From: an uncultured Brevifollis sp.
Lineage (GTDB): Bacteria; Verrucomicrobiota; Verrucomicrobiia; Verrucomicrobiales; Verrucomicrobiaceae
DNA length: 64,000 nt
Assembly: GCA_964642905.1 (NCBI GenBank)
Contig: CAZXPU010000002.1
Location: 34,154-98,153 of the forward strand
Direction of reading: 5' to 3'
Shown here: positions 10,973 to 60,781 of the stretch, piece by piece
Layout of the letters: each line of letters opens with the position of its first letter
Position numbering within the stretch: position 1 is the stretch's first letter
Made by a program: the position numbers and the translations under genes
The notes under the pieces: generated by a model
Databases searched by the model: none
What the model saw: only the letters and a program-made list of their open reading frames with translations
What the model was told of the DNA's origin: nothing

Positions 10973-12351
10973 GGAGCAGCCTTTCCTTTCTTTTTGCCCA
11001 GAAGGCGGAATTCGTCCGTCAACAGCAGCGGCCTGCCCGACACAAGCTGCGCGTCATTCGTGCTTTTCATCCAGGTGTCCAATCCCTGCCGCAGTTCGGC
11101 AAGTGGGGCCGCATGAGCGGATTCGGCAGCCAGGTTGTTCAGTTCAAAGGGATCGGCATCCAGGTCGTACAGCTCCTCGGCCGGCCGCTCGCGGTAGCGC
11201 TTCACGAGAAACGCCGCGCGCGGGTCCGTCTGCGCGGCCTTCTCCCAGGAGGCGATGTAGGCGAGGCTGTCCTCATTCACGGCGCGGTCGATGTGCGAGG
11301 TGAAACGAAACTCGGGATGCAGGTTGCGAATGTACTTCCAGCGCTGCGTGCGCATCGAACGGCTCGGATACACGTTCATGTCATTGTCGCCGGTGTGCGT
11401 CGTGAAGATCGCCTCACGATGCCTGTCCGTCCTTCCCAGGAGCACCGGCAGGAAGGATCGGCCGTCCAGGTCCGCCGGAACATGGCCGCCGCCGGCCTCG
11501 ATGAGCGTGGGCAGGATGTCGATCCACTGCACCATGGCGCTTGATCGCACCCCCGCGGCCACCCTGCCCTGCCACTGCACGATCAACGGCACGCGCGTGC
11601 CTTCATCATAGAGGTTCCATTTGCCGAAAGGCAGCTGCGCCCCGTGGTCGCTGGTCTGCAGGAAGAAGGTGTTCCCCGTTCCCAGGCTCTGCCTCGCCGC
11701 CTCATAAACCGCCCCAATCTCCTCATCCATCTTCATCACTGCGTTGATGTAACGTGCGCGGTAATGCCGGAACTCGGGCGTGTCGATGTGCATCGGCTGA
11801 ACCCTCACCTTCGCCGGATCCACACCCTCCGGAGGCGGCAGCGGCACATGCGGCCAGTTCGTGCCAAAGAACAGTGCGAGCGGCTTGCCGCCCTTGCGCT
11901 GTTTCAAAAAGTCCACACAGGCCTGCACGCCGGCATGGTCGTGGTAGCCGTAGTTCTCCGCACGATCAAAGCCCTGCTCGGTGACATGCGCATAATGGCT
12001 CGTCTTGCCGAAGCTCACCGTCTCATAACCAAGCTCCTTCAAATAAGCCGGCAGTCGCTTCAGCCCGGCATGAGGCTTCGCATGGTTCGGCTCCGCCCCG
12101 TTCCTGGCCGGGTAAAGGCCGGTGAAAAGCGCCGCCCGGCTCGGCGCGCAGCTCGGCGAGTTCACAAACGCACGCTCAAACACCAGGCCCGCCGAGGCCA
12201 GGCGGTCGAGGTTCGGCGTCGGGATGTCCGCCGCGCCATAAACGCTCATGTCCGTGGCGCTGTGATCGTCCGCCAGCAGCACGACCAGATGGGGCGGCGC
12301 GGCGGCAAGCGGCGCGACCAGCAGGGTCAGGATCAACCAGGAATGCTTCAT
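10969..12351 (-). CDS. Cys-type sulfatase, secreted
   Basis: PHLVVLLADDH, SCAPSRAALFTG, SDHG, GKWNLYDEGTRVP; start 12351 gives an ATGA overlap with the upstream sulfatase. Confidence 0.92.
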   Translation of the reverse strand: MKHSWLILTLLVAPLAAAPPHLVVLLADDHSATDMSVYGAADIPTPNLDRLASAGLVFERAFVNSPSCAPSRAALFTGLYPARNGAEPNHAKPHAGLKRLPAYLKELGYETVSFGKTSHYAHVTEQGFDRAENYGYHDHAGVQACVDFLKQRKGGKPLALFFGTNWPHVPLPPPEGVDPAKVRVQPMHIDTPEFRHYRARYINAVMKMDEEIGAVYEAARQSLGTGNTFFLQTSDHGAQLPFGKWNLYDEGTRVPLIVQWQGRVAAGVRSSAMVQWIDILPTLIEAGGGHVPADLDGRSFLPVLLGRTDRHREAIFTTHTGDNDMNVYPSRSMRTQRWKYIRNLHPEFRFTSHIDRAVNEDSLAYIASWEKAAQTDPRAAFLVKRYRERPAEELYDLDADPFELNNLAAESAHAAPLAELRQGLDTWMKSTNDAQLVSGRPLLLTDEFRLLGKKKGKAAP

Positions 12352-13805
12352 GGATTCAGCCGATATTCCCGCATCCACCAGGCCAGCCGCTCCGCGTCGG
12401 ACGGCTCCGGCTTCCTCAGGCGTTTTTGCCAGACTTTTTGATAGGTCTTCCGCTTGTCCTCCTGGATCTCCGCCAGCGGCGGCTCGGTCGCGGGATCCCC
12501 GGCCGCCCCCCGGTCATGCGTGGCCTGGATCCATGCGCCCAGCCTGCCAAGCAGGGCTTCCACACGCGGCTTCTGCGCCGGGTCTGAAGCAAGGTTGCGC
12601 AGGCCCTGCGGGTCCAGCTTCAGGTCGAAAAACTCCACCTCCGGCCGTGTCGGCGCCAGCCAGGAGGCCTGGAAGCTGTCGAGTTCACCACGGACTTGCA
12701 GCACCCTCATCAGGGGCATTCCCGGATACTGCTCCTCCTTGTAGCTGGACCAGTTCAACCGTGACAGCTGCGGGTTGAAATGCCTCACCAGCCAGGCGTC
12801 CTCCGTGATGACGGCGCGGATGCGGTCCATCGCATCACCGCAGCGGTCACGCGCCGCGAACAAACAATCACGCACAGGAAACTCCCCCGTCAGAACGTCA
12901 CGGCCCTCCATCCAGCCCGGCACGGCCTGCCCCGCCACGGCCAGCATGGAAGGCGCGAGATCGATCAGGCTCACCAGCCTCCGCTCCACGCCGCCCCGGC
13001 CCACGCCCGGCCCGCGCATCAGCAGCGGCACCTGCAGGCCCTCGACGCTCAGCCACTGCTTCCCCCACGGCATGGCACGGCCGTGATCGGCGAAAAATAC
13101 AACCAGCGTCTCCTCCAGCACCCCCTCCGCCTCCAACTGCGCCAGGATCGCGCCCACGCGGCCGTCCACCACCTCGACGCTGCGCTGATACGCATGCCAG
13201 TCGCGCCGCATCAGCGGATGATCCGGATAGTTCGGCGGCAGTTCGATGGCCTTGAGCGCCTCTTCATCAAAGGACTCCGGCACCGGAAACGGCCGATGGG
13301 GCTCGCTGATCTGATACTGCGCAAAAAAAGGCTGGCCGGGCGCGCGCCGCCGCCAGTCGTCGCCGTCGAAAAGCGTCCTGGCATCGTGGGCAAAATTGTA
13401 ATGCGTCTTGCCCTTCGTGATCCTTTTACCGGAGCGAATGGTGTCCGGCGCCGGGGCGTTGGTGACGAAATAACCGGCCTGCCTCAACAGGGTCGGCAGC
13501 GGCACATAGGGCGCCGGCAGGGGTTGCGGGTTCTCCGTGTCATGCGGATGCAGGCCGGTGGTGGTCTGGTGGCAGCCGAGAATGAAGGCGGAACGTGACG
13601 AACTGCACACCGGCGCCGTGGCATAAGCCCGGGTGAAACGCCTGCCCTCGGCGGCCAGGCGGTCCAGGTTTGGCGTCCGCACCCCCTTTGCCCCCAGAGC
13701 CGCGACGTCCGGAGACATGTCATCCGCAATGATCCAGACCAAGTTAGGCCTTGCCGCCAGGAGAACCGGGCAGAGGAGAAAAAACAGGACGAGCAGACAC
13801 CGCAT
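12348..13805 (-). CDS. Cys-type sulfatase, secreted (CSSSR variant)
   Basis: RPNLVWIIADDM, VCSSSRSAFILG, ADHG, GKQWLSVEGLQVP; signal peptide from ATG 13805. Confidence 0.88.
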   Translation of the reverse strand: MRCLLVLFFLLCPVLLAARPNLVWIIADDMSPDVAALGAKGVRTPNLDRLAAEGRRFTRAYATAPVCSSSRSAFILGCHQTTTGLHPHDTENPQPLPAPYVPLPTLLRQAGYFVTNAPAPDTIRSGKRITKGKTHYNFAHDARTLFDGDDWRRRAPGQPFFAQYQISEPHRPFPVPESFDEEALKAIELPPNYPDHPLMRRDWHAYQRSVEVVDGRVGAILAQLEAEGVLEETLVVFFADHGRAMPWGKQWLSVEGLQVPLLMRGPGVGRGGVERRLVSLIDLAPSMLAVAGQAVPGWMEGRDVLTGEFPVRDCLFAARDRCGDAMDRIRAVITEDAWLVRHFNPQLSRLNWSSYKEEQYPGMPLMRVLQVRGELDSFQASWLAPTRPEVEFFDLKLDPQGLRNLASDPAQKPRVEALLGRLGAWIQATHDRGAAGDPATEPPLAEIQEDKRKTYQKVWQKRLRKPEPSDAERLAWWMREYRLNP

Positions 13806-15265: not shown

Positions 15266-15294
15266 ACGGTCATCTTGCACCGCAGGATGATGCC
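15266..15294 (+). repeat. Degenerate REP copy (family A)
   Basis: ACGG TC ATCTTGC ACC GCAGGAT GATGCC resembles GTAA CC ATCTTGC CCC GCAAGAT GAGCCG at 55460. Confidence 0.45.
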
Positions 15295-49799: not shown

Positions 49800-51016
49800 A
49801 ACATCTTCTTCTTTGTCCGCTCATCGTTCTTTCGATCTGCGCCCATGCCGCCGAGCCGGCGCCGGCGGCGCCACCGGCTCCGCTGGACTTCATCGACACC
49901 AGCTTCGAAAACGCCTCGCCGCTGTGGTATGAGTTTGCGCCGGACGGCACGGTGATCGTGAACCTGAACTATGACCAGGAGCGCCTCTCGCCCAACCGCG
50001 CGGCGGGGCATTTCCACTTTCGCCTGCAGGCCGCCAAGGGGCGCAAGATCACGCTGGAGCTCAGGAACCTCGCCAATGTCTGGAACAGCAAGGCCGGCTC
50101 GGTCGCCAAGGAGATCAAGCAGGTCGTCATCTCGGAAGATGGCAGGAACTGGACGCCCGTGCCCACGGTGTTTCCGGAGCCGGACCGCGTGCTCGTCACG
50201 CTGGAAATGCCCGGCCCCTCCCTCTACGTCGCCCGTGCGGAGCCGTATCGCGTCTCGGACCTCAACCGCTTTCTGGAGGAGATCCGGGCGAACCCGCGCG
50301 TGAAGATCACCCCGATCGGCAAAACGGTGCAGGGCCGTGAAATCGAGATCATCCGCGTGGGCAATGATGACGCGCCTAACCATGTTTTCATCCGTGCCCG
50401 CGCCCACCCATGGGAGCCGGTGGGCAACTGGGTGACCGAGGGCCTGGTGCGGCGTCTCCTGAAAGGCGACGCGGACGCCGAGAGGTTCCTCGAGCGATAC
50501 AATGTGTGCATCCTGCCGATGGCGAACAAGGACGGCGTCGAACGCGGCGGCACCCGTTTCAACCTTGGCGGCTGGGATTTGAACCGCAAATGGGACAAAC
50601 CCGCCGACCCGAAGCTCGCCCCTGAAAACGCCGCGCTTGAGCGCTGGCTCGAAGACGAGATCAAGGCGGGCAGGCGTCCAACCTTTGCGATGGACCTGCA
50701 CAACGACGGCAACGGCATGCTGCACATCAGCCGTCCGGACACTCCCGACATCGACGCTTATCTCGCACGCATGGCCCGCTTCGAGCAGTGCCTGCGCGAC
50801 CACACGTGGTTCACCGTCGGCTCGACAAAACCGGGCTTTCACAACCCCGGCACGCTGGGAGAAGGCTGGTTCTCACGCTTCGGCGTCGACGCCGTCATCC
50901 TCGAGTTCAACTGCAACTACATCGAGGGGCTCAAGCAGCCCGCCATGGGCAGGCACTGGCTGACCTTTGGCGAAGGGCTCACAAAGACGTTTGAGGCTTA
51001 CTTCGCGGCCAAGTAG
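49796..51016 (+). CDS. M14 zinc carboxypeptidase-like protein, secreted
   Basis: IGKTVQGR, RAHPWE (HxxE), PMANKDG, DLNR, MDLH. Confidence 0.85.
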   Translation: MKHLLLCPLIVLSICAHAAEPAPAAPPAPLDFIDTSFENASPLWYEFAPDGTVIVNLNYDQERLSPNRAAGHFHFRLQAAKGRKITLELRNLANVWNSKAGSVAKEIKQVVISEDGRNWTPVPTVFPEPDRVLVTLEMPGPSLYVARAEPYRVSDLNRFLEEIRANPRVKITPIGKTVQGREIEIIRVGNDDAPNHVFIRARAHPWEPVGNWVTEGLVRRLLKGDADAERFLERYNVCILPMANKDGVERGGTRFNLGGWDLNRKWDKPADPKLAPENAALERWLEDEIKAGRRPTFAMDLHNDGNGMLHISRPDTPDIDAYLARMARFEQCLRDHTWFTVGSTKPGFHNPGTLGEGWFSRFGVDAVILEFNCNYIEGLKQPAMGRHWLTFGEGLTKTFEAYFAAK

Positions 51017-51131
51017 TGCTCTCGCACTGCGAGAGAGACATTGGGAATGGATGGCGCGGAAGATGTGTCTTTAGCGCAGACTTTCTTTGCAGCGAAGTCG
51101 GCCAGCTCATCTCGCAAGGCAAGATGGCTGC
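51013..51131. repeat. REP doublet (REPIN-like), family A
   Basis: GTAG TG CTCTCGC ACT GCGAGAG (51013-51039, +) and GCAG CC ATCTTGC CTT GCGAGAT GAGCTG (51103-51131, -). Confidence 0.75.
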
Positions 51132-51177
51132 TTTGCTTCGCGCAATCGGCTGCTTTGTGGCCGTATGAAATCATCCC

Positions 51178-52524
51178 ATGATCTCGCGCCTCTTTTTGCT
51201 CACGCTGACAGCCTTCACTTTCTCGATGCACGCCCGGCCAGTCGGCGACGGCAAGGCGGACGACACGGCGGCGGTGCAGGCAATGGTCGATGAAGGCGGC
51301 GCCCTGCGTTTCGGGCGCGGCAGCCATCGGCTGACGAAAACGATCGTCGTCGACCTCGACAAAACGGGCTTCATTTCGCTCAGCGGCGACGGGGTGGCGC
51401 GGTTTGTGATGGAGGGCGCGGGACCAGCCTTTCATTTCAAAGGCACGCACGGCGGCACGGCGGATCCGGAGAGCCTGAAGCCGGAGATCTTCGCCCGGCA
51501 GCGCACGCCAATGATCGAGGGTCTGGAGATCACCGGCGCCCATGCCGAGGCGGATGGCATCGAGGCCACTGGCACGATGCAGCTCACGATCAGCCGTGTG
51601 TCCGTGCACGAGGCACGGCATGGAGTGCGCCTCAGCGTCCGAAACCGCAACGTCATCATCAGCGACTGCCATCTGTATCACAACAGCGGCGCGGGTGTGC
51701 TTTACGACCAGGTCGATCTGCACCAGTCGAACATCATCGGCAGCCACATCAGCTACAATGCCGGAGGAGGCGTGGTGACACGTGGCGGCGCGGTGAGAAA
51801 CCTGCACATCGGCACCTGCGACATCGAGAGCAACATGGCCCCGGAGGCCCCGCCGACCGCGAACGTGCTGATCGACTGCACGGACGGCTCCACGGCCGAG
51901 GTGAGCATCACCGGCTGCACCCTTCAGCACAACAGCAGGTCACCTGGCTCGGCGAATGTGCGCTTCATCGGCAAGGGCAGGCCGTATGGCAACGATGAAA
52001 GCGCGCGCTGGGGTCATCTCAGCATCTGCGACAACGTGCTGAGCGACGTCGACGTGAACATCGACCTTCAGGAGGTGCGCGGCGCGGTCATCAACGGCAA
52101 CACCTTCGGCGTCGGCTTCCAGCACGATCTGCTCGCAGTGGGTTGCAGCCACATCGCCGTCGGCCCGAACACCTTCGACCGCAACCCGCCCTACTACCGC
52201 GGCAAGGCCGCCGAGGCAAAGGGCGGCCTCGTCTTCCGCAACTGCCGTGACACGACGCTGACCGGCCTGCAGATTGACGGCGTGCGTTCACATCCGGCGG
52301 CCCTGCAGGTTCTCAACGGCGACACCTTCAACATCTCCGGCTGCACGATCCTCGACAGCGACGGTGCGGGCCTGCTGCTGCAAAACACACGCAACAGCCT
52401 CGTGACCGGCTGCCTGATCGCCGATCGCCGCCAAGACCGCCCGCCCGCTCCTTCCCTTCGAGTCGAAGGCGGCGGGGACAACACCTTTGCCAACAACAAG
52501 CTCGCGCACGGCGAAGCCAAGTAG
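51178..52524 (+). CDS. Right-handed parallel beta-helix (pectin lyase-like) protein, secreted
   Basis: GDGKADDTAAVQ start motif, then repeats NVIISDCHL, NLHIGTCDI, VSITGCTL, FNISGCTI. Confidence 0.85.
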   Translation: MISRLFLLTLTAFTFSMHARPVGDGKADDTAAVQAMVDEGGALRFGRGSHRLTKTIVVDLDKTGFISLSGDGVARFVMEGAGPAFHFKGTHGGTADPESLKPEIFARQRTPMIEGLEITGAHAEADGIEATGTMQLTISRVSVHEARHGVRLSVRNRNVIISDCHLYHNSGAGVLYDQVDLHQSNIIGSHISYNAGGGVVTRGGAVRNLHIGTCDIESNMAPEAPPTANVLIDCTDGSTAEVSITGCTLQHNSRSPGSANVRFIGKGRPYGNDESARWGHLSICDNVLSDVDVNIDLQEVRGAVINGNTFGVGFQHDLLAVGCSHIAVGPNTFDRNPPYYRGKAAEAKGGLVFRNCRDTTLTGLQIDGVRSHPAALQVLNGDTFNISGCTILDSDGAGLLLQNTRNSLVTGCLIADRRQDRPPAPSLRVEGGGDNTFANNKLAHGEAK

Positions 52525-52640
52525 CCCTCTTGCTCCGCGAGATGAGCTGTGCGCATGGCAAACACAAGGCGCGTCGAGCTTTCGTCCCGCATTTCTGGCA
52601 GGGAAGGCCTTGAGATTGCATTGCCCAGCAAGATGGCTGC
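52521..52640. repeat. REP doublet (REPIN-like), family A
   Basis: GTAG CC CTCTTGC TCC GCGAGAT GAGCTG (52521-52549, +) and partial GCAG CC ATCTTGC TGG GCAA (52621-52640, -). Confidence 0.7.
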
Positions 52641-52671
52641 CTTGCCGTCGCGTATTCGAAGCCTGCTTTCC

Positions 52672-53457
52672 ATGCGTTTGCTTCTCATCCTCACCTGCCT
52701 CGTGCTTCAACCGCTGCACGCGGCGGATTTTCATGCCGCCACCTGCGAAGGCGTCTATCCACGCCACCTCCAGGGATTCTGCACCAATGACAAGGACGCC
52801 ATCTACTGGTGCTGGACGGATGTTCTCGTCAAAACCGACACGGAGGGCCGGGTGCTGAAAAAGGTGCCGGTGGCCAACCACCATGGCGACCTCTGTTTTC
52901 ACGACGGTCGCGTGTATGTCGCCACCAACCTGGGCAAGTTCAACCGGCCGGCGGGCGAGGCGGACTCGTGGGTCTATGTCTATGATGCGGACAGCCTTGC
53001 CGAACTGACCAGGCATCGCCTGCCTGAGCTTGTGCATGGAGCGGGCGGCATGACCTGGCGTGACGGACGCTTCTTCATCGTCGGCGGCCTGCCTCCCGGG
53101 GTGGAGGAAAACTACGTGTATGAGTATGACAGCGCCTTCCGCTTCCAGAAGCGTCACGTGCTCGCCAGCGGCTACACGCTCATGGGCATTCAGACGGTGG
53201 CGCAGGCGGACGGCACCTGGTGGTTCGGCTGTTACGGCAAGCCGGCCGTGCTGCTGCGTGCGGATGAAAACCTGCGCTTCAACGGCAAATGGGAGTTCAA
53301 CGCCTCCGTCGGCCTCGCCCCGATCAGCGGCGGGCGTTTCCTCGTCGCGCAAAACACGTCCATGAAAGGCGAGGACGGCAAGACCAAGGTCAACAAGGCC
53401 CGGGTGCTGGTGGCGCGGCCCGATGAGAAAGCCGGGTTGGTGATTGAAACGCCATGA
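52672..53457 (+). CDS. Secreted hypothetical beta-propeller protein
   Basis: Signal peptide; YPRHLQG, NHHGDLC, HGAGGM repeats. Confidence 0.7.
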   Translation: MRLLLILTCLVLQPLHAADFHAATCEGVYPRHLQGFCTNDKDAIYWCWTDVLVKTDTEGRVLKKVPVANHHGDLCFHDGRVYVATNLGKFNRPAGEADSWVYVYDADSLAELTRHRLPELVHGAGGMTWRDGRFFIVGGLPPGVEENYVYEYDSAFRFQKRHVLASGYTLMGIQTVAQADGTWWFGCYGKPAVLLRADENLRFNGKWEFNASVGLAPISGGRFLVAQNTSMKGEDGKTKVNKARVLVARPDEKAGLVIETP

Positions 53458-55463
53458 CCCCGCTCTGCCGAAGCCTCCTTGTCAGTCTTGTCTGCACCTG
53501 GGCGCATGCCGAGGTCACACGGGTCGAAATCACGCACCGCGCCCCCTTTGCGGAAGGCCGGTCCTTCGGGGCCGCAGGCGCCTACGAATGCATCCGGGGC
53601 AGGCTGCACCTGGAAACGGATCCGCAAAACCCGGCCAACGAACGCATCAGCGACCTCCGGCGCGCCCCGCGCAATGCCAGGGGGCTGGTGCACAGCTGGT
53701 CCGACTTCTTCCTTCTGAAGCCGGTCGATGCGGCAAAAGGCAACGGCGTTCTGCTTTATGACGTCCACAACCGCGGCAACATGCTCGCTCTGTGGACCTT
53801 CAATGATGGCGAGCGCACCAACGATCCGAAGACAGAGGCGCATGCGGGCCACGGCTTCCTGATGAAGCACGGCTTTTCCGTGCTTTGGTGCGGCTGGAAC
53901 GGCGAGGTTCAGGCCGATGACACGCATCGTTTGTTATGCGGCCTGCCCATCGCGACGGAAAACGGGCGGACAATCACCGGCAGGGCGCATCTGGAGATCA
54001 GCAGCACCGAGAAGGTCTTCAGCCGTGCTTTTTCCTGGAGCCCCTGGGGCATCGGCGCGGCTTTTCCGGCCGTAAGCCTCGACAATGCCGACGCCACGCT
54101 CACCATGCGTCCACATCGCACTGCGGAAGGCATCGAAGTGCCGCGGGCGGAGTGGGCATTCGGCCGCTGGGAGAATGAGAAGCTCATCCCCGACGCCACG
54201 AATCTTCACGTGAAGGCGGGTTTTCGTCCGGGCTGGCTCTACGACCTCGTTTACACGGCGAAGGAACCACGAGTGACCGGGCTCGGCCTCACCGCCCTGA
54301 GGGACTGCGTGACATATTTCAGACACGGGGAGGCGAAGGAAAATCCGCTGTCGGGTGCGATTCAGAAAGCCTGCGTCTTCGGCATCTCGCAGTCCGGCCG
54401 CGTCATCCATCACTTTCTTTATGAAGGCCTGAACAGCGATGAGCAGGGACGCAGGGTCTTTGACGGCGCCCTGATCCATGTCGCGGGCTCCGGCAAGGGC
54501 ATGTTCAACCACCGCTTCCGCATGAGCACGGAGTACGGCACGCAGCACGAGGGCCATCTGTCGGGCAGCGAGTTCTTCCCGCTCGCGCCGCTGCCGCAAA
54601 CCGATGCCGTCACCGGCGAATCCGGCGACTCGCTCGCACGTTCGCGGAAGTCCGGCCACACGCCGCGCATTCTCTTCACGCAAAGCTCCACCGAATACTG
54701 GAGCCGCGCCGCCTCGCTGCTGCACACGGATGTGGAGGGAAAAACCGACCTCAGCCTGCCGGAGGATATGCGCGTTTATCTCGTGGCCGGAGCACAGCAT
54801 CTCGGCAGGAGCGACGGCACGCCAGGCATCTGCCAGCAGCCGCGCAACACGCTCGATGATCGCGGTCCCGTGCTGCGGGCGATGCTGATGCATCTGGTGG
54901 ATTGGGTGAAGCATGACAAAGCTCCGCCGCCAAGCCGTCATCCACGGCTGAAAGATCACACGCTGGTGAGCTTCGAAGAATGGAAGGCGCAGCATCCGAA
55001 GATTCCAGGCCATCATCTCCCCACCCATGCCTATCAGCCGCTGCGCCTTGATTTTGGACCGCGTTTTCACAGCGAAGGCATCGCCGACATCGTTCCACCG
55101 AAGGCCGGAAAACCCTTCCGCACGCTCGTGCCTGCCGTGAATGCCGATGGCAATGAAACCAGCGGCATCGTGCTGCCGGAGGTCACCGTGCCGCTCGGCA
55201 CCTACACCGGCTGGAACCTCCGCTCGCCCCAGGTCGGTGCCGCAACAATGCTCTCGCCGCTCGACGGCATGTTCATCCCCTTTGCGAAGACCAAGGCCGA
55301 ACGCGACAAGACCGGCGACCCTCGCCTCTCTCTCGAAGAACGCTACCCGACACGGGCGGAGTATCTGTCACGCTTCAGGGCCGCAGCCCAAAAGCTCCAC
55401 GAAGACGGGTTTCTGCTGGAGGAGGATGTGACACGGCTCATCGAGCGTGAGTCAGCAAAGTAA
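53454..55463 (+). CDS. Secreted alpha/beta hydrolase domain protein (Abhydrolase_10-like)
   Basis: FGAAGAYE, LLYDVHNRG, FGISQSGR (GxSxxG), FDGALIH, EYW, AGAQH, PLGTYTGWN, SLEERY. Confidence 0.82.
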   Translation: MTPLCRSLLVSLVCTWAHAEVTRVEITHRAPFAEGRSFGAAGAYECIRGRLHLETDPQNPANERISDLRRAPRNARGLVHSWSDFFLLKPVDAAKGNGVLLYDVHNRGNMLALWTFNDGERTNDPKTEAHAGHGFLMKHGFSVLWCGWNGEVQADDTHRLLCGLPIATENGRTITGRAHLEISSTEKVFSRAFSWSPWGIGAAFPAVSLDNADATLTMRPHRTAEGIEVPRAEWAFGRWENEKLIPDATNLHVKAGFRPGWLYDLVYTAKEPRVTGLGLTALRDCVTYFRHGEAKENPLSGAIQKACVFGISQSGRVIHHFLYEGLNSDEQGRRVFDGALIHVAGSGKGMFNHRFRMSTEYGTQHEGHLSGSEFFPLAPLPQTDAVTGESGDSLARSRKSGHTPRILFTQSSTEYWSRAASLLHTDVEGKTDLSLPEDMRVYLVAGAQHLGRSDGTPGICQQPRNTLDDRGPVLRAMLMHLVDWVKHDKAPPPSRHPRLKDHTLVSFEEWKAQHPKIPGHHLPTHAYQPLRLDFGPRFHSEGIADIVPPKAGKPFRTLVPAVNADGNETSGIVLPEVTVPLGTYTGWNLRSPQVGAATMLSPLDGMFIPFAKTKAERDKTGDPRLSLEERYPTRAEYLSRFRAAAQKLHEDGFLLEEDVTRLIERESAK

Positions 55464-55488
55464 CCATCTTGCCCCGCAAGATGAGCCG
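55460..55488 (+). repeat. REP copy, family A (left arm)
   Basis: GTAA CC ATCTTGC CCC GCAAGAT GAGCCG; perfect 7-bp stem; TAA is the stop of the upstream gene. Confidence 0.75.
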
Positions 55489-55550
55489 GGGCGTTCGGAC
55501 AAAAACGTCCCGCAAAGGTCCGTTGCGCCGGGTTGCATGCGCCTTATCGG

Positions 55551-56090
55551 ATGAACATGGGTGACATCGTGATTGAGACCGGGCGGCTGCATCTGCGGCC
55601 TATGACATCGGATGATGTTCCAGACTTGCTGGAGGTTTTTGGCGATGCGGAGGCCATGCGCTTTTATCCAGCCCCGTTTGATGAAGCCCGGATGCGAGCG
55701 TGGGTCGATTGGAACCGACGGAGCTATGAGACGCAAGGTCATGGGCTTTGGGCTCTAGTCCAGCGCTCCACGGGCGAGGTGATTGGCGATTGCGGTCTCG
55801 TCAGCCAGGAGGTCGATGGCTCACCCGAGATCGAGGTGGGGTACCATGTGCGGCGTGATCTGTGGGGCAAGGGACTGGCCACGGAGGCGGCGCTGGCTTG
55901 CCTGGAGCATGGATTCACCCGCTTCGGCTTCAGGCGGTTCGTTTCGCTTATCCATCCTCAAAATGCGCCCTCGCGACGGGTGGCGGCAAAGATCGGAATG
56001 ACGCTACGGCGGGAGACCGAATGGAAGGGCAAAGCCACCTGCATTTATGGGATTGAGAGAGGCCGAATCCTCGCCCATGCATCGCCATGA
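55551..56090 (+). CDS. GNAT N-acetyltransferase (RimJ/RimL type)
   Basis: IETGRLHLRP, VIGDCGL, EIEVGY, LWGKGLATEAA, NAPSRRVAAKIGM. Confidence 0.9.
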   Translation: MNMGDIVIETGRLHLRPMTSDDVPDLLEVFGDAEAMRFYPAPFDEARMRAWVDWNRRSYETQGHGLWALVQRSTGEVIGDCGLVSQEVDGSPEIEVGYHVRRDLWGKGLATEAALACLEHGFTRFGFRRFVSLIHPQNAPSRRVAAKIGMTLRRETEWKGKATCIYGIERGRILAHASP

Positions 56091-56539
56091 AGATGGAAGG
56101 AATCCAAGGCTGTTTTGAGAAAACCCGCGGCATGTTCTATTTCGCGAGGATGTGCTCCAAGATTCGTCTGCATGACCAGGGCCGATTGCCAGACGAATAT
56201 CACGACATGCTCGGCCAGGGCTTTGATGGGCGGACGTGTCGTTACTTGCATGTCGCCTACGAGGAGGTGAGATCGCAGGTGCTGGCCGGCAGGTCGGATG
56301 GGGAGGTGCTCGACTGGTGCTTCGCCAATGGTCGCCCGCTCACTGAGGAAGAAGTGCTCATCTACAACAGCTTCATGAGCAAGCGCGGCTGGCACGATGA
56401 CGAGACCGACGAGTTCATCCCCGAAATGATCCGGCAGTATGGCCTGCCAGACAACGGCACCGTTTTAACCGACTTTGACCTCATCGAGATGGATGAGGGC
56501 CGCTGGTATCCCGACATGTGGCGGGATGCCTGGAAATGA
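56087..56539 (+). CDS. DUF5069 domain protein
   Basis: GMFYFARMCSKIRLH..G.LP.EY, GFDGRTC, SDGEVLDW, FDLIEMDEGR. Confidence 0.78.
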   Translation: MKMEGIQGCFEKTRGMFYFARMCSKIRLHDQGRLPDEYHDMLGQGFDGRTCRYLHVAYEEVRSQVLAGRSDGEVLDWCFANGRPLTEEEVLIYNSFMSKRGWHDDETDEFIPEMIRQYGLPDNGTVLTDFDLIEMDEGRWYPDMWRDAWK

Positions 56540-56554
56540 ACCCAACTCCCGATC

Positions 56555-56938
56555 ATGCCTGATTTTCCGTCCCCCGAGTCCGTCGTCCAGCGGCAGCTTG
56601 ATGCCTACAACGCACGCGACGTGGATGCGCTGCTGGCAACGTATGCCGAGGACGTGCAGCAGTTTGAATTTCCAGGCACCTTGCTGTGCAACGGCGCGTC
56701 GCAGTTGCGGGAGCGAATGACGGCACGCTTGAGCGATCCGCTGCTCCATGCGCGGCTGATCAACCGCGTCGTGATGGGTAATACGGTTATCGACCACGAG
56801 GAGGTGACGCGCTCCTTCCCGGAAGGCCCTGGCAAAATCGAATTGGTGGCGATTTACGAGGTGCGCGATGGGAAAATCACCGCCGCGCGGTTCATCTCCG
56901 GGAAGATCACTCTCGACTCCACGACTCACACCCAATGA
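56555..56938 (+). CDS. SnoaL/NTF2-like protein
   Basis: VVQRQLDAYNARDVDA, GNTVIDHEEV, VAIYEVRDGKI. Confidence 0.88.
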   Translation: MPDFPSPESVVQRQLDAYNARDVDALLATYAEDVQQFEFPGTLLCNGASQLRERMTARLSDPLLHARLINRVVMGNTVIDHEEVTRSFPEGPGKIELVAIYEVRDGKITAARFISGKITLDSTTHTQ

Positions 56939-57381
56939 CCCCAACGATCTGCCCCTTCAACGACAGCACCCATCGCGATCAAGTCATCGCCTTGTGGGAG
57001 GCTGTGTTCGGCTATGAAACAGCCCACAACCGCCCTGGGCTTGCCATCGACAAGAAGTTGGCCGTCGAGGACGGGCTGTTCTTCGTCGCCATGCGGGGTG
57101 CCGAGGTCATCGGCACCCTCATGGCCGGATACGACGGGCACCGCGGCTGGATCTACTCCGTCGCGGTGCATCCTGAACATCGAAAGCAGGGCGTCGGCTC
57201 CAAGCTTGTCGTTCATGCGGAGCGTGCACTGGCCGGGCGTGGCTGCATGAAGATCAATCTTCAGATCGTGGCAGGCAACGCGTCCGTGGCAGCCTTCTAC
57301 GAGTCACTCGGCTATGCTGTTGAGCCGCGCGTAAGCATGGGCAAACAGATTCAGGCCAACATTGCATCGAATGATCTCTGA
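56935..57381 (+). CDS. GNAT acetyltransferase (YpeA-like)
   Basis: MAGYDGHRGWIYSVAVHP, GCMKINLQI, FYESLGY. Confidence 0.9.
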   Translation: MTPTICPFNDSTHRDQVIALWEAVFGYETAHNRPGLAIDKKLAVEDGLFFVAMRGAEVIGTLMAGYDGHRGWIYSVAVHPEHRKQGVGSKLVVHAERALAGRGCMKINLQIVAGNASVAAFYESLGYAVEPRVSMGKQIQANIASNDL

Positions 57382-57545
57382 GCATGGGATCAGCAGCGGC
57401 CCGCTGGCCGCGCCGCGCAAGGCCCGGATTCACCACGGGGAGAAGGCCAGGGCTTTTCTGCCTGCATCTTCCAAGTCAACATGGAGAACCAGATGCATCA
57501 GGTTGATTTTGGCCTCAGCCATTGGCTTCAAAAAAGCTGACTCAC

Positions 57546-58253
57546 ATGCATGACCACACATCCACCGACACCCGTCGCGGCCCGCGAACCACGATCATCT
57601 TCGATGCGGACGGCACGCTGATTGGTGGCGAGCCAACTGACTGGGTGAGCTTTGAGGCGGCGTTTCTTGAGGTCGCTGGCTTCGCTTTGACCGGCGACTT
57701 CTTCGACTCCATCGAAGAAGTCACGGCCAGGGCGCTCGTGCATCAGGCGCTGGCTGATCTCGATCACACGGAGCGTCAGCTCAAAGAACAGGCTGTTGCC
57801 GACGGGTTCCTGCGCCGGCTGCAAGCCGCGCACCAGAAAGATCGTGAATGCTTTCCAGCCACCCATGGAGCGGTGGCGCTGCTGCACGAGCTGAAAGCAG
57901 CCGGATTGCGCATCGCCATCGCCACCGGTGACTGGCGAGAATCGATCACCTTCAAGCTCGGCGCCGCCGGCATCCCGATTGACGACATTCCCATCGTGAC
58001 CTCCTCGGAGCACTACGCCCGCGCCGACATCATCCGTGCTGCGGTGTCCCAGGCAGGCGGACGGCTCGATGAAGCCGTCTATGTGGGCGACGGCCTGTGG
58101 GATCTGCGAGCCTGCGAACGCCTGGGCATTTCCTTCATTGGCGTCGGACACCGGAAGGAGCGGCTGCGAAATGCAGGCGCGCTGCACGTCGTCGATGATC
58201 TGCATCCGCCGCTGTTCTGGCGCGTTCACGGCGCCATCCATACGACCCGCTAA
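57546..58253 (+). CDS. HAD superfamily hydrolase
   Basis: IIFDADGTL, IATG, YVGDGLWD. Confidence 0.88.
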   Translation: MHDHTSTDTRRGPRTTIIFDADGTLIGGEPTDWVSFEAAFLEVAGFALTGDFFDSIEEVTARALVHQALADLDHTERQLKEQAVADGFLRRLQAAHQKDRECFPATHGAVALLHELKAAGLRIAIATGDWRESITFKLGAAGIPIDDIPIVTSSEHYARADIIRAAVSQAGGRLDEAVYVGDGLWDLRACERLGISFIGVGHRKERLRNAGALHVVDDLHPPLFWRVHGAIHTTR

Positions 58254-58268
58254 CCTGCCCTTCACGAC

Positions 58269-58667
58269 ATGCTCCATCACCTCTCCTTCGCCGTCACTGA
58301 TCTCAATCAGTCTGCCGCATTCTACGATGCGGCGCTTGCCACGCTCGGGTATCGCCGCGTGTGGCACGATGCGACATTCATCGGATACGGCGTGAAGGAT
58401 GGAGAGGACATCTTCGCGCTCAAGTTTCGTCCGCGAAACACGGGCGTGCCCGGAGATGGATTTCATGTGGCTTTCACAGCGCCATCACGGGACGCTGTTC
58501 TGCGTTTTCATGAGGCCGCGCTCGTTCACGGCGGCGCTGACAACGGCGGAGCCGGGCTGCATCCTGAATACGGCCCGGACTACTTCGCCGCGTTTGTCAT
58601 TGATCCTGACGGCTACCGGATCGAAGCCGTGTTCATCGACAATCCGTCAGCATCTATGTCCGCATGA
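58269..58667 (+). CDS. VOC family (glyoxalase) protein
   Basis: MLHHLSFAV, AFYDAAL, HVAFTA, DNGGAGL, YFAAFVIDPDGYRIEAV. Confidence 0.92.
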   Translation: MLHHLSFAVTDLNQSAAFYDAALATLGYRRVWHDATFIGYGVKDGEDIFALKFRPRNTGVPGDGFHVAFTAPSRDAVLRFHEAALVHGGADNGGAGLHPEYGPDYFAAFVIDPDGYRIEAVFIDNPSASMSA

Positions 58668-58693
58668 TTCAGCCGCGCTTCGTGTGAATGTCC

Positions 58694-59080
58694 CTATGAT
58701 GTGACATCGAAGAATGCCAGAACATGCCCGTCAGGGTCGCTGACGTAAAACTCGCGACCGCAGGGCATCACACGCAGAGGTTGGACGATCTCCAGCGCCT
58801 GCGAGCACACCTGCTCATACAGACCGTCGAGGTCCTTCACTCCAAAGATCAGATCGACATCCTGATTCTCCCGCCTGCGCTGCCACTCGCTGCTGGATGG
58901 AGTGCCTGCCTTGAGGTGGATCGAGTGGGGCCCGATGCCGAGGCCCGCGTAGAAGCCCCCATGCTCGAAGTTGAGTTCGAACCCCAATCGCCCGGTGTAA
59001 AACCGGTTCGACCGTTTCAAGTCGGACAGCACGAGCAGAGGACTCATGCAGTGGAGAATCGCGGGAAGCATGGTTTTCAT
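58694..59080 (-). CDS. VOC family (bleomycin-resistance-like) protein
   Basis: FYTGRLGF, VKDLDGLYE, GREFYVSDPDGHVLAF. Confidence 0.8.
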   Translation of the reverse strand: MKTMLPAILHCMSPLLVLSDLKRSNRFYTGRLGFELNFEHGGFYAGLGIGPHSIHLKAGTPSSSEWQRRRENQDVDLIFGVKDLDGLYEQVCSQALEIVQPLRVMPCGREFYVSDPDGHVLAFFDVTS

Positions 59081-59129
59081 AAGGAACCACTCCTGCCATG
59101 CTCATGCGATCAGGCCAACTGGGTCGTAT

Positions 59130-59189
59130 GCAACGAAGTCTGCCGTCTCTCGGCTCCTCTCGGCTCCTCTCGCGGAGCGAGAGGGCTGC
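59130..59189 (-). repeat. REP copy, family A (right arm), with internal 10-bp tandem duplication
   Basis: Minus strand GCAG CC CTCTCGC TCC GCGAGAG GAGCCG (59161-59189); CGGCTCCTCT repeated at 59151 and 59161; GCAACGAAGTCTGCC (59130) matches GCAGCGAAGTCGGCC (51089). Confidence 0.75.
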
Positions 59190-59206
59190 TTTGCTCTCGG
59201 AACAAG

Positions 59207-60781
59207 TCACACCCGCCGCAGCGGCTGCGAGAAGATCATGTCCACGATGGGAATTGGCGTACGCAAAGCCGGTTCAGTGCTCGCGAAGGCGGGGCCGCGC
59301 AGGGCTTTTTGATCATGGATCTGCGAGATGTCATGCACGTTCATGCCGCGCAGCATTTCAGCGGACAGCGGCCGGCCTTGTTGATGCGTGTTCGGATACG
59401 CAAAAGCCTCCACGCGCACGAAGGCGGCCTCGAGACGGCCGCCGGCATCGCGTTTGAGCGGAAACTCGCCCTGGGCAGCATCGACGATGCTGGCGACGCC
59501 TTGATCGGTGATGAAGCGAATCTGCACGTTGGCACGGTTGGCGTCGTTGCCAGCCACGGCAACGTGCAGCGTGTCGTTTTGCACGGTGATGCGGCTGAAA
59601 CGGAAACTGCTGCGGTCATAGGGCGCGACGACCTCGCCCGTCTCGCTGGATGCCAGCGAGGCCACCGAGCCAAAGAAGGCCCCCTGGCGGTAGGCGCGCA
59701 AGGCCGCAGCCTCGCGCTCACCCGCTGACAGGGCGTCCAGCTTCGGCACAAGCAGCACGTTGCGTCCGCGGCCGTAGGTGTTGTGATCCTTGACGAAGAA
59801 ACCCCAGCAACGACGTCCCGTGCGCAGGATGTCATCCCAGAGCTGGTAGAAATGCAGGTTAGGCTTTCCGCTGTGGTCGTAGAAGCCGCGGCTGGAGCCA
59901 AAGCCGGAGGTGAGCTGGTTCCACACCTCGATGCCGAGCACGCGCGGATCAAAGTCGAGCATCGGCAGGTAGTCTGTGATCTTTCCGGTCGGATGATTGA
60001 GCGTCATGCCGCCTCCATCCGGGTGTTGCAGCGCGCCAAAGGCTTCACGGAAGACATCGCGCCATGGGCGGTTCGTGCCCTGCATGAGTCGATATTGCGT
60101 CAGGGACATCGCTTGGGCGTCAAACTCAAGATCGGTGTCGATGCTGGCCGTCGTGGCACGCAGATAGATCGTGTGATTTCCGGGCGCGAGCTCGCGCACC
60201 TGCACAGGCCCCTTGTCCGCAAAACCCTTGCGGAAATCGCACTCGTTCGCGCCTTTGATGCTGAGCCTGGCGACCGGTTTGCCAGCCTTGGCATCGAGCC
60301 GAACATCCAGCCGATAAACACCGAGCCAGGGCTTTTGTGCATCGAACACCTTCAGGTTTTCAAAGCGATGCACCACAGGCGACACGGCACATTCCCTGGC
60401 ACTCACCGAGCTGCCGTAACCGGTGGCGAGCAGGCTGCCAAGCGCATTGGCATGCAGGCCTGTGTCCGTGAACGAATGATGCTCCGCATTCGGAGAGGCG
60501 ACCAGGCGCGGATGCTTCGCCGCATACTCTGCAGGCAAGGGGTAGGTCGGCGCCGAAGGATAGTAGTTGCTGAAGGCAAAGTGCCCGTAGCCCATCTCCA
60601 GGAAGCCGTCACGGGAGGCATCCGTCTGCCCCTGATGCTGATGCGACATGGAATGCAGGTGCTCACAGGCGTCCCAGTCCACCTCCGCATACGGGTTTTC
60701 AATCCTGCCGCCACCGGCCGCGCCCCAGCTTGCCTGAACGGGCAGGGCGGCCAAGGAGGCGATCAGCTTTCGGCGATTCAT
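59207..60781 (-). CDS. Tat-exported PHP-like metallohydrolase with inserted domain
   Basis: MNRRKLIA signal; HSMSHQH, NAEHH, LNHP, IEVWN, VKDH metal-ligand pattern. Confidence 0.65.
   Translation of the reverse strand: MNRRKLIASLAALPVQASWGAAGGGRIENPYAEVDWDACEHLHSMSHQHQGQTDASRDGFLEMGYGHFAFSNYYPSAPTYPLPAEYAAKHPRLVASPNAEHHSFTDTGLHANALGSLLATGYGSSVSARECAVSPVVHRFENLKVFDAQKPWLGVYRLDVRLDAKAGKPVARLSIKGANECDFRKGFADKGPVQVRELAPGNHTIYLRATTASIDTDLEFDAQAMSLTQYRLMQGTNRPWRDVFREAFGALQHPDGGGMTLNHPTGKITDYLPMLDFDPRVLGIEVWNQLTSGFGSSRGFYDHSGKPNLHFYQLWDDILRTGRRCWGFFVKDHNTYGRGRNVLLVPKLDALSAGEREAAALRAYRQGAFFGSVASLASSETGEVVAPYDRSSFRFSRITVQNDTLHVAVAGNDANRANVQIRFITDQGVASIVDAAQGEFPLKRDAGGRLEAAFVRVEAFAYPNTHQQGRPLSAEMLRGMNVHDISQIHDQKALRGPAFASTEPALRTPIPIVDMIFSQPLRRV

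Follow-up and report, generated by a model that had tools for sequence, protein, structure and literature searches.

In a 64-kb window of DNA from an uncultured Brevifollis species (the whole stretch analysed, 64,000 nucleotides), seven small enzyme genes (GNAT, DUF5069, SnoaL, GNAT, HAD, VOC and VOC families) occupy a 3.7-kb block between two inverted repetitive extragenic palindrome (REP) arms. This arrangement raises the question of whether a REPIN, the hairpin-forming doublet of such palindromes, captured or carried these genes, or was simply split by them. An earlier note on this DNA had seen in the block the two arms of a split REPIN that acts as a gene-capture site or as a cargo-carrying element. 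Our analysis upholds the split REPIN and points to a different history: the block is probably an old islet of accessory genes that came to lie inside a resident REPIN by ordinary insertion, with arms that do not move the cargo. What is new is a family of REPINs with its REP-associated tyrosine transposase (RAYT) in Verrucomicrobiota, together with an allelic series, rather than a new kind of mobile element or mode of moving genes.

The arms that bracket the block (Table 1) are both complete. The forward arm, of hairpin type A, consists of the tail GTCAGCAAAGTAA, the hairpin CATCTTGC-CCC-GCAAGATG (55465-55483) and the inner flank AGCCGGGGCGTTCGGAC, and its tail AGCAAAGTAA holds the stop codon of the upstream core gene g4. 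The inverted arm, of type B, has the inner box GCAACGAAGTCTGCC, the hairpin CCTCTCGC-GGA-GCGAGAGG (59166-59184) and the tail GCTGCTTTGCTCTCGG. As the earlier note had described, the forward and inverted REPs enclose all seven genes with their tetranucleotides (GTAA and GCAG) facing outward, which is also the arrangement of the intact doublets at 51003-51142 and 52511-52652; at a distance of 3,701 nt they form a split REPIN and not an intact doublet. The inner flank said to be shared with the upstream doublet was also found, GCAACGAAGTCTGCC matching GCAGCGAAGTCGGCC of the 51090 copy at 13 of 15 positions. This flank is a box, GCNGCGAARKC, that precedes the inverted hairpin in several other doublets; the hidden Markov model of the arm stopped short of it in the window copy. 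The hairpin core CATCTYGC-N3-GCRAGATG, with up to two mismatches, occurs five times in the window against 0.23 expected, a count reached in none of 100 shuffles. There are six REP arms in the window, and inverted-repeat copies starting at 51102, 52511, 55454 and 59163, each 33-39 nt long, are 83-88% identical (51102-51137 with 55454-55489, 83%; 52515-52547 with 59163-59195, 88%; 51103-51141 with 52511-52549, 85%). A hairpin at 15271 was set aside as a chance match, having no tail, no arm-model match and a position inside coding sequence.

The repeat proved to be a genuine REPIN family of Prosthecobacter-like Verrucomicrobia. Scanning species-representative genomes for g4 yielded 61 loci, mostly from Prosthecobacter and other Verrucomicrobiaceae metagenome-assembled genomes, and a metagenome scan with the forward arm added 83 further loci. 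Alignment of 16 doublets defined an arm of about 55 nt, composed of a tail CGCG..AGCAAAGTAG, CC, an 8-bp stem with a 3-nt loop and an inner flank AGCYRRGGGCTTTCGC (consensus CGCG..AGCAAAGTAG-CC-CATCTYGC-N3-GCRAGATG). With this model, nhmmer detected 229 arms, about 30 of them single, at 103 loci of many Prosthecobacter-like genomes and metagenomes, and 94 canonical doublets (pairs of inverted arms whose inner gap does not exceed 150 nt) with hairpins that start about 90 nt apart. At the tetranucleotide position, 134 non-redundant arms read TAG in 126 cases, CAG in 7 and TAA in 1; the family thus has the palindrome with a 5' GTAG that characterizes REPs. The doublet is intrinsically asymmetric: among 80 non-redundant doublets, 53 combined a type A (CATCTTGC..GCAAGATG) with a type B (CCTCTCGC..GCGAGAGG) hairpin, none was A+A or B+B, and 27 had an arm that could not be cleanly typed. 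A and B arms still pair, through G-T wobbles and a few mismatches, and the empty doublet of one relative, L005, folds into one long hairpin (-33.1 kcal/mol, z = -3.5).

A RAYT-like open reading frame (ORF) of 214 aa lies between two full doublets in L121 (1099-1743, + strand), L089, L094, L134 and L102. It scored 24.9 bits against the Pfam Y1_Tnp cut-off of 23, and its sole match in the Protein Data Bank was 4ER8, the E. coli TnpA-REP (E = 0.01), with which both catalytic motifs align (HUH, PNHVH versus PEHMH; tyrosine motif YIxxNP, DYIAQNP versus DYIYINP). The gene is known from other contigs and was not located in the window's own genome, which is represented by 64 kb. Broken copies occur in L108 and L135, and the gene takes its own stop codon from inside a REP tail (..HWSKA*). 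Judged by these sequences, the family has the defining features of a REPIN-RAYT system, and its mobilization by the RAYT is predicted. It is a clear case of such a system, with a two-type (A+B) doublet, in Verrucomicrobiota, a phylum that goes unmentioned in the main text of a RAYT survey in which abundant REPs were linked mainly to RAYT groups 2 and 3 (PMC5581495).

We then compared the g4 junction across all loci, using tblastn of the window proteins for synteny and reading the junctions by eye; Pfam assignments for the cargoes of other relatives come from a separate scan of their ORFs. The space between g4 and the next core gene, g12 or g13, exists in at least 10 configurations in about 40 genomes (Table 1). 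The empty REPIN of the earlier note's prediction is present in six relatives and, with the A+B make-up of the separated pair, bears out the reading of the two arms as one split doublet. Hairpins of the empty alleles are 86-90 nt apart, the canonical spacing. The inverted arm is of type B in every hairpin read by eye, both in empty alleles (L005, L024, L027, L044 and L148) and in those with cargo (the window, L147 and L007), which argues for orthology; the inverted hairpin of L003 is degenerate. The empty spacers of L005, L148, L044 and L024 are mutually homologous although these genomes belong to different clades, and their loops therefore represent one allele and not repeated deletions. The prediction of different cargo between the same arms was borne out as well: smaller cargoes do occur there, in L007 and in the closest relative L147 (92% g4 protein identity), where c7 is the sole cargo gene retained, but both are subsets of the same gene set and are best read as its deletion derivatives. 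Relatives with the same genes and no REPs, which the earlier note had named as the case against it, are disfavoured, because L004, L008 and L026 carry decayed arm remnants; L004 is without c5, the inverted arm and g12. In L012, L021 and L054 the REP tail is retained and hairpins are absent, and in lineages that never had the REPIN, 0.07-2 kb follow g4. The locus thus behaves as a flexible islet, with conserved flanks, alternative unrelated contents and no recombinase in the scanned cargo ORFs. It also offers a natural series (bare junction, empty REPIN, and REPIN with 1, 3 or 7 genes inside) that is useful material for studying whether rearrangement is promoted by REPINs or just tolerated.

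Table 1. Features of the window around the separated REP pair, and configurations of the g4 junction in the window and its relatives
Feature	Position	Strand	Evidence or carriers
Intact canonical REPIN doublet, reference copy, between g1 and g2	51003..51142		
Canonical REPIN doublet between g2 and g3, inverted arm partly degenerate	52511..52652		
g4, left flanking core gene, Abhydrolase_10, 669 aa	53454..55463	+	Pfam PF20091, 131 bits
Forward REP arm, type A	55448..55505	+	nhmmer arm-model match 55453-55491, E=1.5e-8
c1, GNAT acetyltransferase (Acetyltransf_3)	55557..56090	+	Pfam 129.8 bits; gene call in identical Logan contig L001
c2, DUF5069 protein, 4-nt overlap with c1	56087..56539	+	Pfam 102 bits
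c3, SnoaL_2-like protein	56555..56938	+	Pfam 53 bits
c4, GNAT acetyltransferase (Acetyltransf_1), 4-nt overlap with c3	56935..57381	+	Pfam 69.7 bits
c5, HAD-family hydrolase	57546..58253	+	Pfam HAD_2 61 bits; without counterpart in L004, kept in L007
c6, VOC / glyoxalase-family protein	58269..58667	+	Pfam 30 bits
c7, VOC / glyoxalase-family protein, same direction as g12	58694..59080	-	Pfam 39 bits
Two tandem copies of the 10-bp unit CTCTCGGCTC, adjoining the inverted hairpin at its 5' base	59147..59166		
Inverted REP arm, type B	59131..59199	-	nhmmer match 59159-59199, E=1.3e-9
g12, core gene on the right flank, 524 aa, without a Pfam family and convergent with g4	59207..60781	-	
g4 and g12 separated by an empty canonical doublet (~140 bp)			L003, L005, L024, L044, L148
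g4 and g13 separated by an empty canonical doublet, g12 missing			L027
Both arms and cargo of the shared gene set			Window (c1-c7); L147 (c7 only); L007 (c3-c5, then the B hairpin joined to the initial 22 nt of c6)
Forward arm only, then cargo			L006, L034 (c6; L006 also a ParD-PemK pair)
Forward arm only, then 7.4-kb cargo			L035, L020 (L035 genes scanned: DUF1501, PSD1/PSCyt, two-component system)
Forward arm only, then other cargo, unscanned			L013, L014
Decayed arm remnants and shared gene set			L004, L008, L026
REP tail or 30-nt remnant, no cargo			L012, L021, L054; L016, L017, L023, L040
REP remnant, then 322 nt of non-coding DNA			L055
g4 with the longer ancestral C-terminus, without trace of a REP; next core gene 67 nt to 2 kb away			L009, L010, L019, L022, L028-L031, L033

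The C-terminus of g4 records the order of events. Among 60 orthologue C-termini, those of the REP clade read ..ERASAK*, their last codons being REP tail, versus ..ERAEKVARD* or ..ERSAKVEFK* in distant orthologues; as the end of g4 is encoded by the REP tail and distant orthologues are longer, REPIN insertion shortened the gene and supplied its stop codon. Every lineage with cargo from the c-gene set has a REP-tail-encoded g4 end (ERASAK*, ERASAQ* or ERASVQ*), and distant orthologues with the longer ancestral end never have this cargo. The most economical order would therefore run from a bare junction, through REPIN insertion, to cargo between the hairpins. In the history we propose, a RAYT-type REPIN of about 140 bp (type-A arm, loop and inverted type-B arm) inserted, as the comparison of relatives shows, at the 3' end of g4 in an ancestor of this Prosthecobacter clade, shortening g4 by about 4 codons, providing its stop and filling the whole space between g4 and g12. 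Small enzyme genes would then have entered between the hairpins, presumably by illegitimate recombination, extending the two convergent transcription units (c1-c6 after g4, c7 after g12). The islet would since have been inherited with the locus and eroded by deletions that often ended at REP hairpins, and homologous recombination within the core genes on either side has probably swapped it, along with the 'empty REPIN' allele, between species.

Two features of the locus make a REPIN-specific process unnecessary. The empty REPIN extends from the stop of g4 to a point 7-11 nt short of the g12 stop, about half of it lying between the hairpins, and since it is essentially the entire non-coding space between the two genes, any insertion that spared both would split it. 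The g3/g4 junction, which has no REPIN, is just as variable, so that a split REPIN calls for nothing peculiar to REPINs: g3 and g4 overlap in the window (53454-53457), and in relatives 0 to 3.6 kb lie between them. Among the relatives scanned, this junction yielded no REP arms, the L009 insert lying outside this check. The gene content of the g4 neighbourhood is generally variable; g3 and g4 are 1.4-3.6 kb apart in several of the relatives compared (L004, L005, L006, L009, L012 and L024).

The cargo is an old resident of the locus, having diverged together with the flanking core genes. Between the window and L004, protein identity was 81-94% for the cargo and 86-89% for core genes g1-g4 and g13, and a single continuous nucleotide alignment (86.4%) ran from g4 to c4. 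Four further metagenome runs from other studies contain the same block, and no contig skips it; a within-species search for excision on assembler contigs likewise yielded no joints. In every genome and run examined (8 species, 5 or more runs), the cargo was downstream of g4, without a second location that combined the same ends and cargo, and none of its genes occurred at the 83 arm-bearing metagenome loci. The ends of the block showed neither a target-site duplication nor another insertion signature, and the 'empty' sites hold both arms as an intact REPIN. Accordingly, the proposal that the REPIN is a cargo-carrying element or a dedicated capture site found no support: the cargo is confined to one locus, has co-diverged with it, varies between arms only as subsets and comes with no recombinase. 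The 10-bp tandem duplication that the earlier note had reported is real, and one unit is missing from contigs of the same species in four other metagenome runs (X5, X6, X8 and X10) and from L147, where the unit is single-copy; it is therefore a recent strain-level slippage. We rejected it as a target-site duplication, as it is polymorphic within the species and present on one side only. Repeats resembling att sites or a duplicated loop at the cargo ends gave suggestive gapped alignments that were no better than shuffles (p = 0.1-0.5) and were likewise discarded.

How cargo and empty alleles came to be distributed among species is less direct. In all three single-gene trees that contain these genomes (neighbour-joining, without support values), the window grouped with the empty-REPIN genomes L005 and L003, with L004 further off; L147, which is not part of these trees, is closer still to the window. 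Either the empty lineages lost the cargo or alleles were exchanged across species by recombination in the flanks; because the empty allele is shared, exchange seems the more likely on these sequences. Identity along g4 is mosaic. A recent import of g4 and cargo from an L004-like donor was considered and rejected, since L005 is the closest genome over most of g4 by sliding identity and no clear breakpoint appears. At L035:19415-19455, a duplicated g4 3' fragment is joined to a bare g4/g12 junction at the right end of the 7.4-kb cargo, the footprint expected from, and thus supporting, DNA integration by crossover within g4.

Several points weigh against ordinary insertion into a resident REPIN as the full account. 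The insertion event itself is unobserved and its mechanism inferred; the trace of the original loop in the window is not significant (p = 0.1-0.5), so the exact breakpoint is not placed; the exchange step draws on unsupported single-gene neighbour-joining trees and is suggestive; and rare excision products would be invisible in contigs, the material searched. Moreover, several independent rearrangement endpoints coincide with hairpin bases or loops (the L007 and L004 deletions, the 21-nt deletion of L147, the 10-bp duplication of the window, and the L013/L035/L020 junction 3 nt after the hairpin), which hints that the hairpins are not mere bystanders. Such endpoints, at least five of them independent although given without a null model for their clustering, would be expected if the REPIN were a causal hot spot of capture, its hairpin or cruciform being fragile, slippage-prone or the target of since-lost REP-seeking insertion sequences (ISs), so that foreign or translocated genes were preferentially joined at the loop and hairpin bases. 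At least two unrelated cargo sets begin about 3-25 nt from the A hairpin (the c-gene set, and the module with DUF1501, PSD1 and two-component genes in L035 and L020, which the cargo start of the unscanned L013 resembles), an unrelated REPIN (L090/L095) has a 360-nt non-coding insert, and REPs are documented IS targets (Tobes and Pareja 2006, PMC1525189). Yet genes lie between the arms at just one of about 80 non-redundant REPIN loci, nearby REPIN-free junctions are equally variable and the block contains no IS remnant. We regard a causal role as a minority possibility, and likewise the proposal that REPIN loops are structure-dependent capture sites whose hairpin breaks or slips in replication so that DNA is joined at the hairpin bases. 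Were loops preferred capture sites, common bacterial repeats would be linked to the growth of accessory-gene islets; in these Verrucomicrobia, hot spots of accessory genes would be seeded and then bounded by REPINs, whose nearly invariant arms would be kept because they insulate the captured genes or terminate their transcription.

Other readings give the arms a different origin or role. A non-autonomous, RAYT-mobilized transposon, in effect a gene-carrying REPIN, would account for the complete A and B arms around the block, whose GTAG-type ends face outward, for empty sites in relatives, for a RAYT-like gene with conserved HUH and YIxxNP motifs in genomes with this REP family, and for arms that are nearly invariant while adjacent coding DNA diverges. 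All occurrences at one locus (8 species, 5 or more runs), cargo divergence equal to that of the core, the lack of a target duplication and the 3.7 kb of single-stranded DNA that arm pairing would need make it very improbable; furthermore, the 'empty' sites retain the REPIN, the opposite of what excision of arms plus cargo would leave. Somewhat less remote, but still improbable, is a scenario in which two REP singlets inserted independently, one at the 3' end of each convergent gene, on either side of an islet already present. The two arms are indeed oriented alike with respect to the gene upstream of each, about one arm in four provides an ORF with its stop codon, and L004, L008 and L026 had seemed to be REP-less relatives with cargo; these three carry decayed arm remnants, however, and the pair is A+B like every classifiable doublet, whereas singlets are a minority (about 30 of 229 arms). 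The B arm is also still partnered with an A arm where g12 is absent (L027 and L007), and empty alleles show the same A/B arrangement. Finally, an islet once flanked by two complete REPINs, with inner arms that later decayed and 'empty' alleles arising by recombination between the direct copies, would explain clean, repeated loss of cargo leaving one canonical REPIN, and both window flanks show weak gapped similarities to the empty loop. These similarities are not significant (p = 0.1-0.5), the arm model found no inner-arm remnant anywhere in 55506-59130, and the mutually homologous empty spacers point to one allele and not to repeated events, leaving this reading, too, with very little probability.

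The preferred history, an islet inserted in a resident REPIN, shares features with several known systems. REPIN-RAYT systems were reportedly treated by Nunvar in 2010. They consist of hairpin-forming REP doublets and the REP-associated tyrosine transposase that goes with them (Bertels and Rainey 2011, PMC3116915), and in Pseudomonas the REP pairs have a uniform spacing of 60-70 bp (Loper et al. 2012, PMC3390384). The family described here matches in its 5' GTAG palindrome, uniformly spaced inverted doublets that fold as one hairpin, high extragenic copy number, doublet-flanked Y1 transposase gene (with its HUH and Tyr motifs), and hairpins more conserved than neighbouring genes; it differs in its Verrucomicrobiota host, its asymmetric A+B doublet, a tail that often gives a gene its stop codon and, in the copy studied, the 3.7 kb of genes inside. 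IS1397 inserts in the bacterial interspersed mosaic elements of E. coli. As with REP-targeting ISs (PMC1525189), foreign DNA here lies within or between REP palindromes with REP halves on either side; unlike them, the block has no transposase, terminal inverted repeats or target duplication, and consists of ordinary enzyme genes that co-diverged with the host.

Minimal mobile elements of Neisseria, reportedly described by Saunders and Snyder in 2002, are said to be islets exchanged by homologous recombination between conserved flanking genes. The g4 locus resembles them in conserved flanks with alternative contents (empty, one gene, several genes or unrelated modules), in the absence of mobility genes and in an allele distribution incongruent with gene trees; it differs in that the site is also occupied by a REPIN and that exchange by transformation and recombination is inferred here. 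IS200/IS605 elements have both end hairpins on the same strand, occur at many sites and include non-autonomous derivatives with passenger genes. Common to them and the present case are the transposase superfamily, to which RAYTs belong, subterminal end hairpins and a short conserved motif beside the hairpin, but here the arms are inverted and the unit occupies one site only. The gene content (GNAT, VOC/glyoxalase and small proteins of unknown function, with toxin-antitoxin genes in relatives, mostly in one orientation) recalls integron cassette arrays and clusters of attC sites lacking integron-integrases. Unlike those arrays, the block has no integrase, one gene is inverted and genes overlap by 4 nt or sit 15-26 nt apart, which leaves no room for attC sites; we rejected an integron on these grounds, no dedicated attC model having been run.

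All seven gene families named by the earlier note were recovered by Pfam, and its statement that no integrase is present also held for the block and its neighbours. A Pfam scan of ORFs found neither integrase nor transposase domains in the block, and no recombinase was found among the cargo ORFs scanned (those of the window block and L035, and single ORFs of L006, L008, L009 and L010). Successive cargo genes are separated by -4, 15, -4, 164, 15 and 26 nt, so that the sole sizeable non-coding gap, 57382-57545, is directly 5' of c5. The block is lower in GC, as the earlier note had stated, and is the lowest-GC 3.7-kb stretch of the window, but the note's figure of 48-57% GC was wrong and overestimated the difference: GC content is 60.1%, compared with 64.4% in the rest of the window, and ranges from 47% to 75% (mean 60%) per 60-nt line. 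GC at third codon positions (GC3) is 64-76% in cargo genes and 75-87% in their neighbours, and the cargo values overlap those of g4 and g12. A foreign origin deduced from base composition was therefore rejected, the block being just 4 GC points lower, its GC3 overlapping g4 and g12 and its genes having co-diverged with the core. No Rfam family matched anywhere in the window, and no sigma-70-like promoters were found in the block; RNA runs contain only 5-6% of the sequence words and are uninformative on expression or read-through. Homologues of the DUF5069 gene c2, with 75-86% identity, are widespread in Verrucomicrobia and beyond, and the gene is slowly evolving; elsewhere it occurs in other small-gene arrays (L149 and L150) that are unlinked to g4 and were not scanned for REP arms.

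The arms have a recurrent relation to the ends of genes. REP tails give the last codons (..AK*) and the stop of g1, g2 and g4 in the window (51007-51016, 52515-52524 and 55454-55463), and a census over all loci showed the REP TAG ending an open frame of 100 codons or more in 32 of 127 arms, compared with 30 of 254 in control frames. In L147 (11995-12010), the REP GTAG and the left hairpin half have been lost through an in-frame deletion of 21 nt, and g4 reads into the right half to end in ..ERASAR*. At the g4 locus, the stop-plus-hairpin segment is on average 92% identical between species, versus 79% for the last 120 nt of g4, which fits selection on, or homogenization of, REP sequences. From the inside outward, each arm presents a hairpin and then a T-rich tail; speculatively, the doublet could stop transcripts running antisense into the opposite gene.

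Some smaller observations concern individual junctions. A ParD-antitoxin / PemK-toxin pair stands beside the g12 stop codon in L006 (12537-13090) and L009 (13421-13974), the Pfam passes covering the toxin-like ORF of both and the antitoxin-like ORF of L006, with the matching small L009 ORF unscanned. The L026 cargo has an 11-bp direct repeat, GAAGAGTTGAG, at either end (11960-11975, in the decayed REP arm, and 12950-12965, in the g13 leader), where chance and signal are indistinguishable. Contig depth over the type-B arm (window 59148-59381) is 3-7 times that of its surroundings in runs X6 and X10, and several contigs end at 59163 and 59195; the raised depth reflects the many arm copies elsewhere in those metagenomes. 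Besides the g4 locus, the only split doublet is the REPIN at L090:3052-3508 (identical to L095:11640-12096), whose 360-nt insert holds two further inverted-repeat elements, ACCACGGAATACAC..GTGTATTCCGTGGT and GCCGCCGAGGGGCGGAGGAGCAGAG..CTCTGCCTCTTTGCTCCTCGGCGGC, that look like nested miniature elements.

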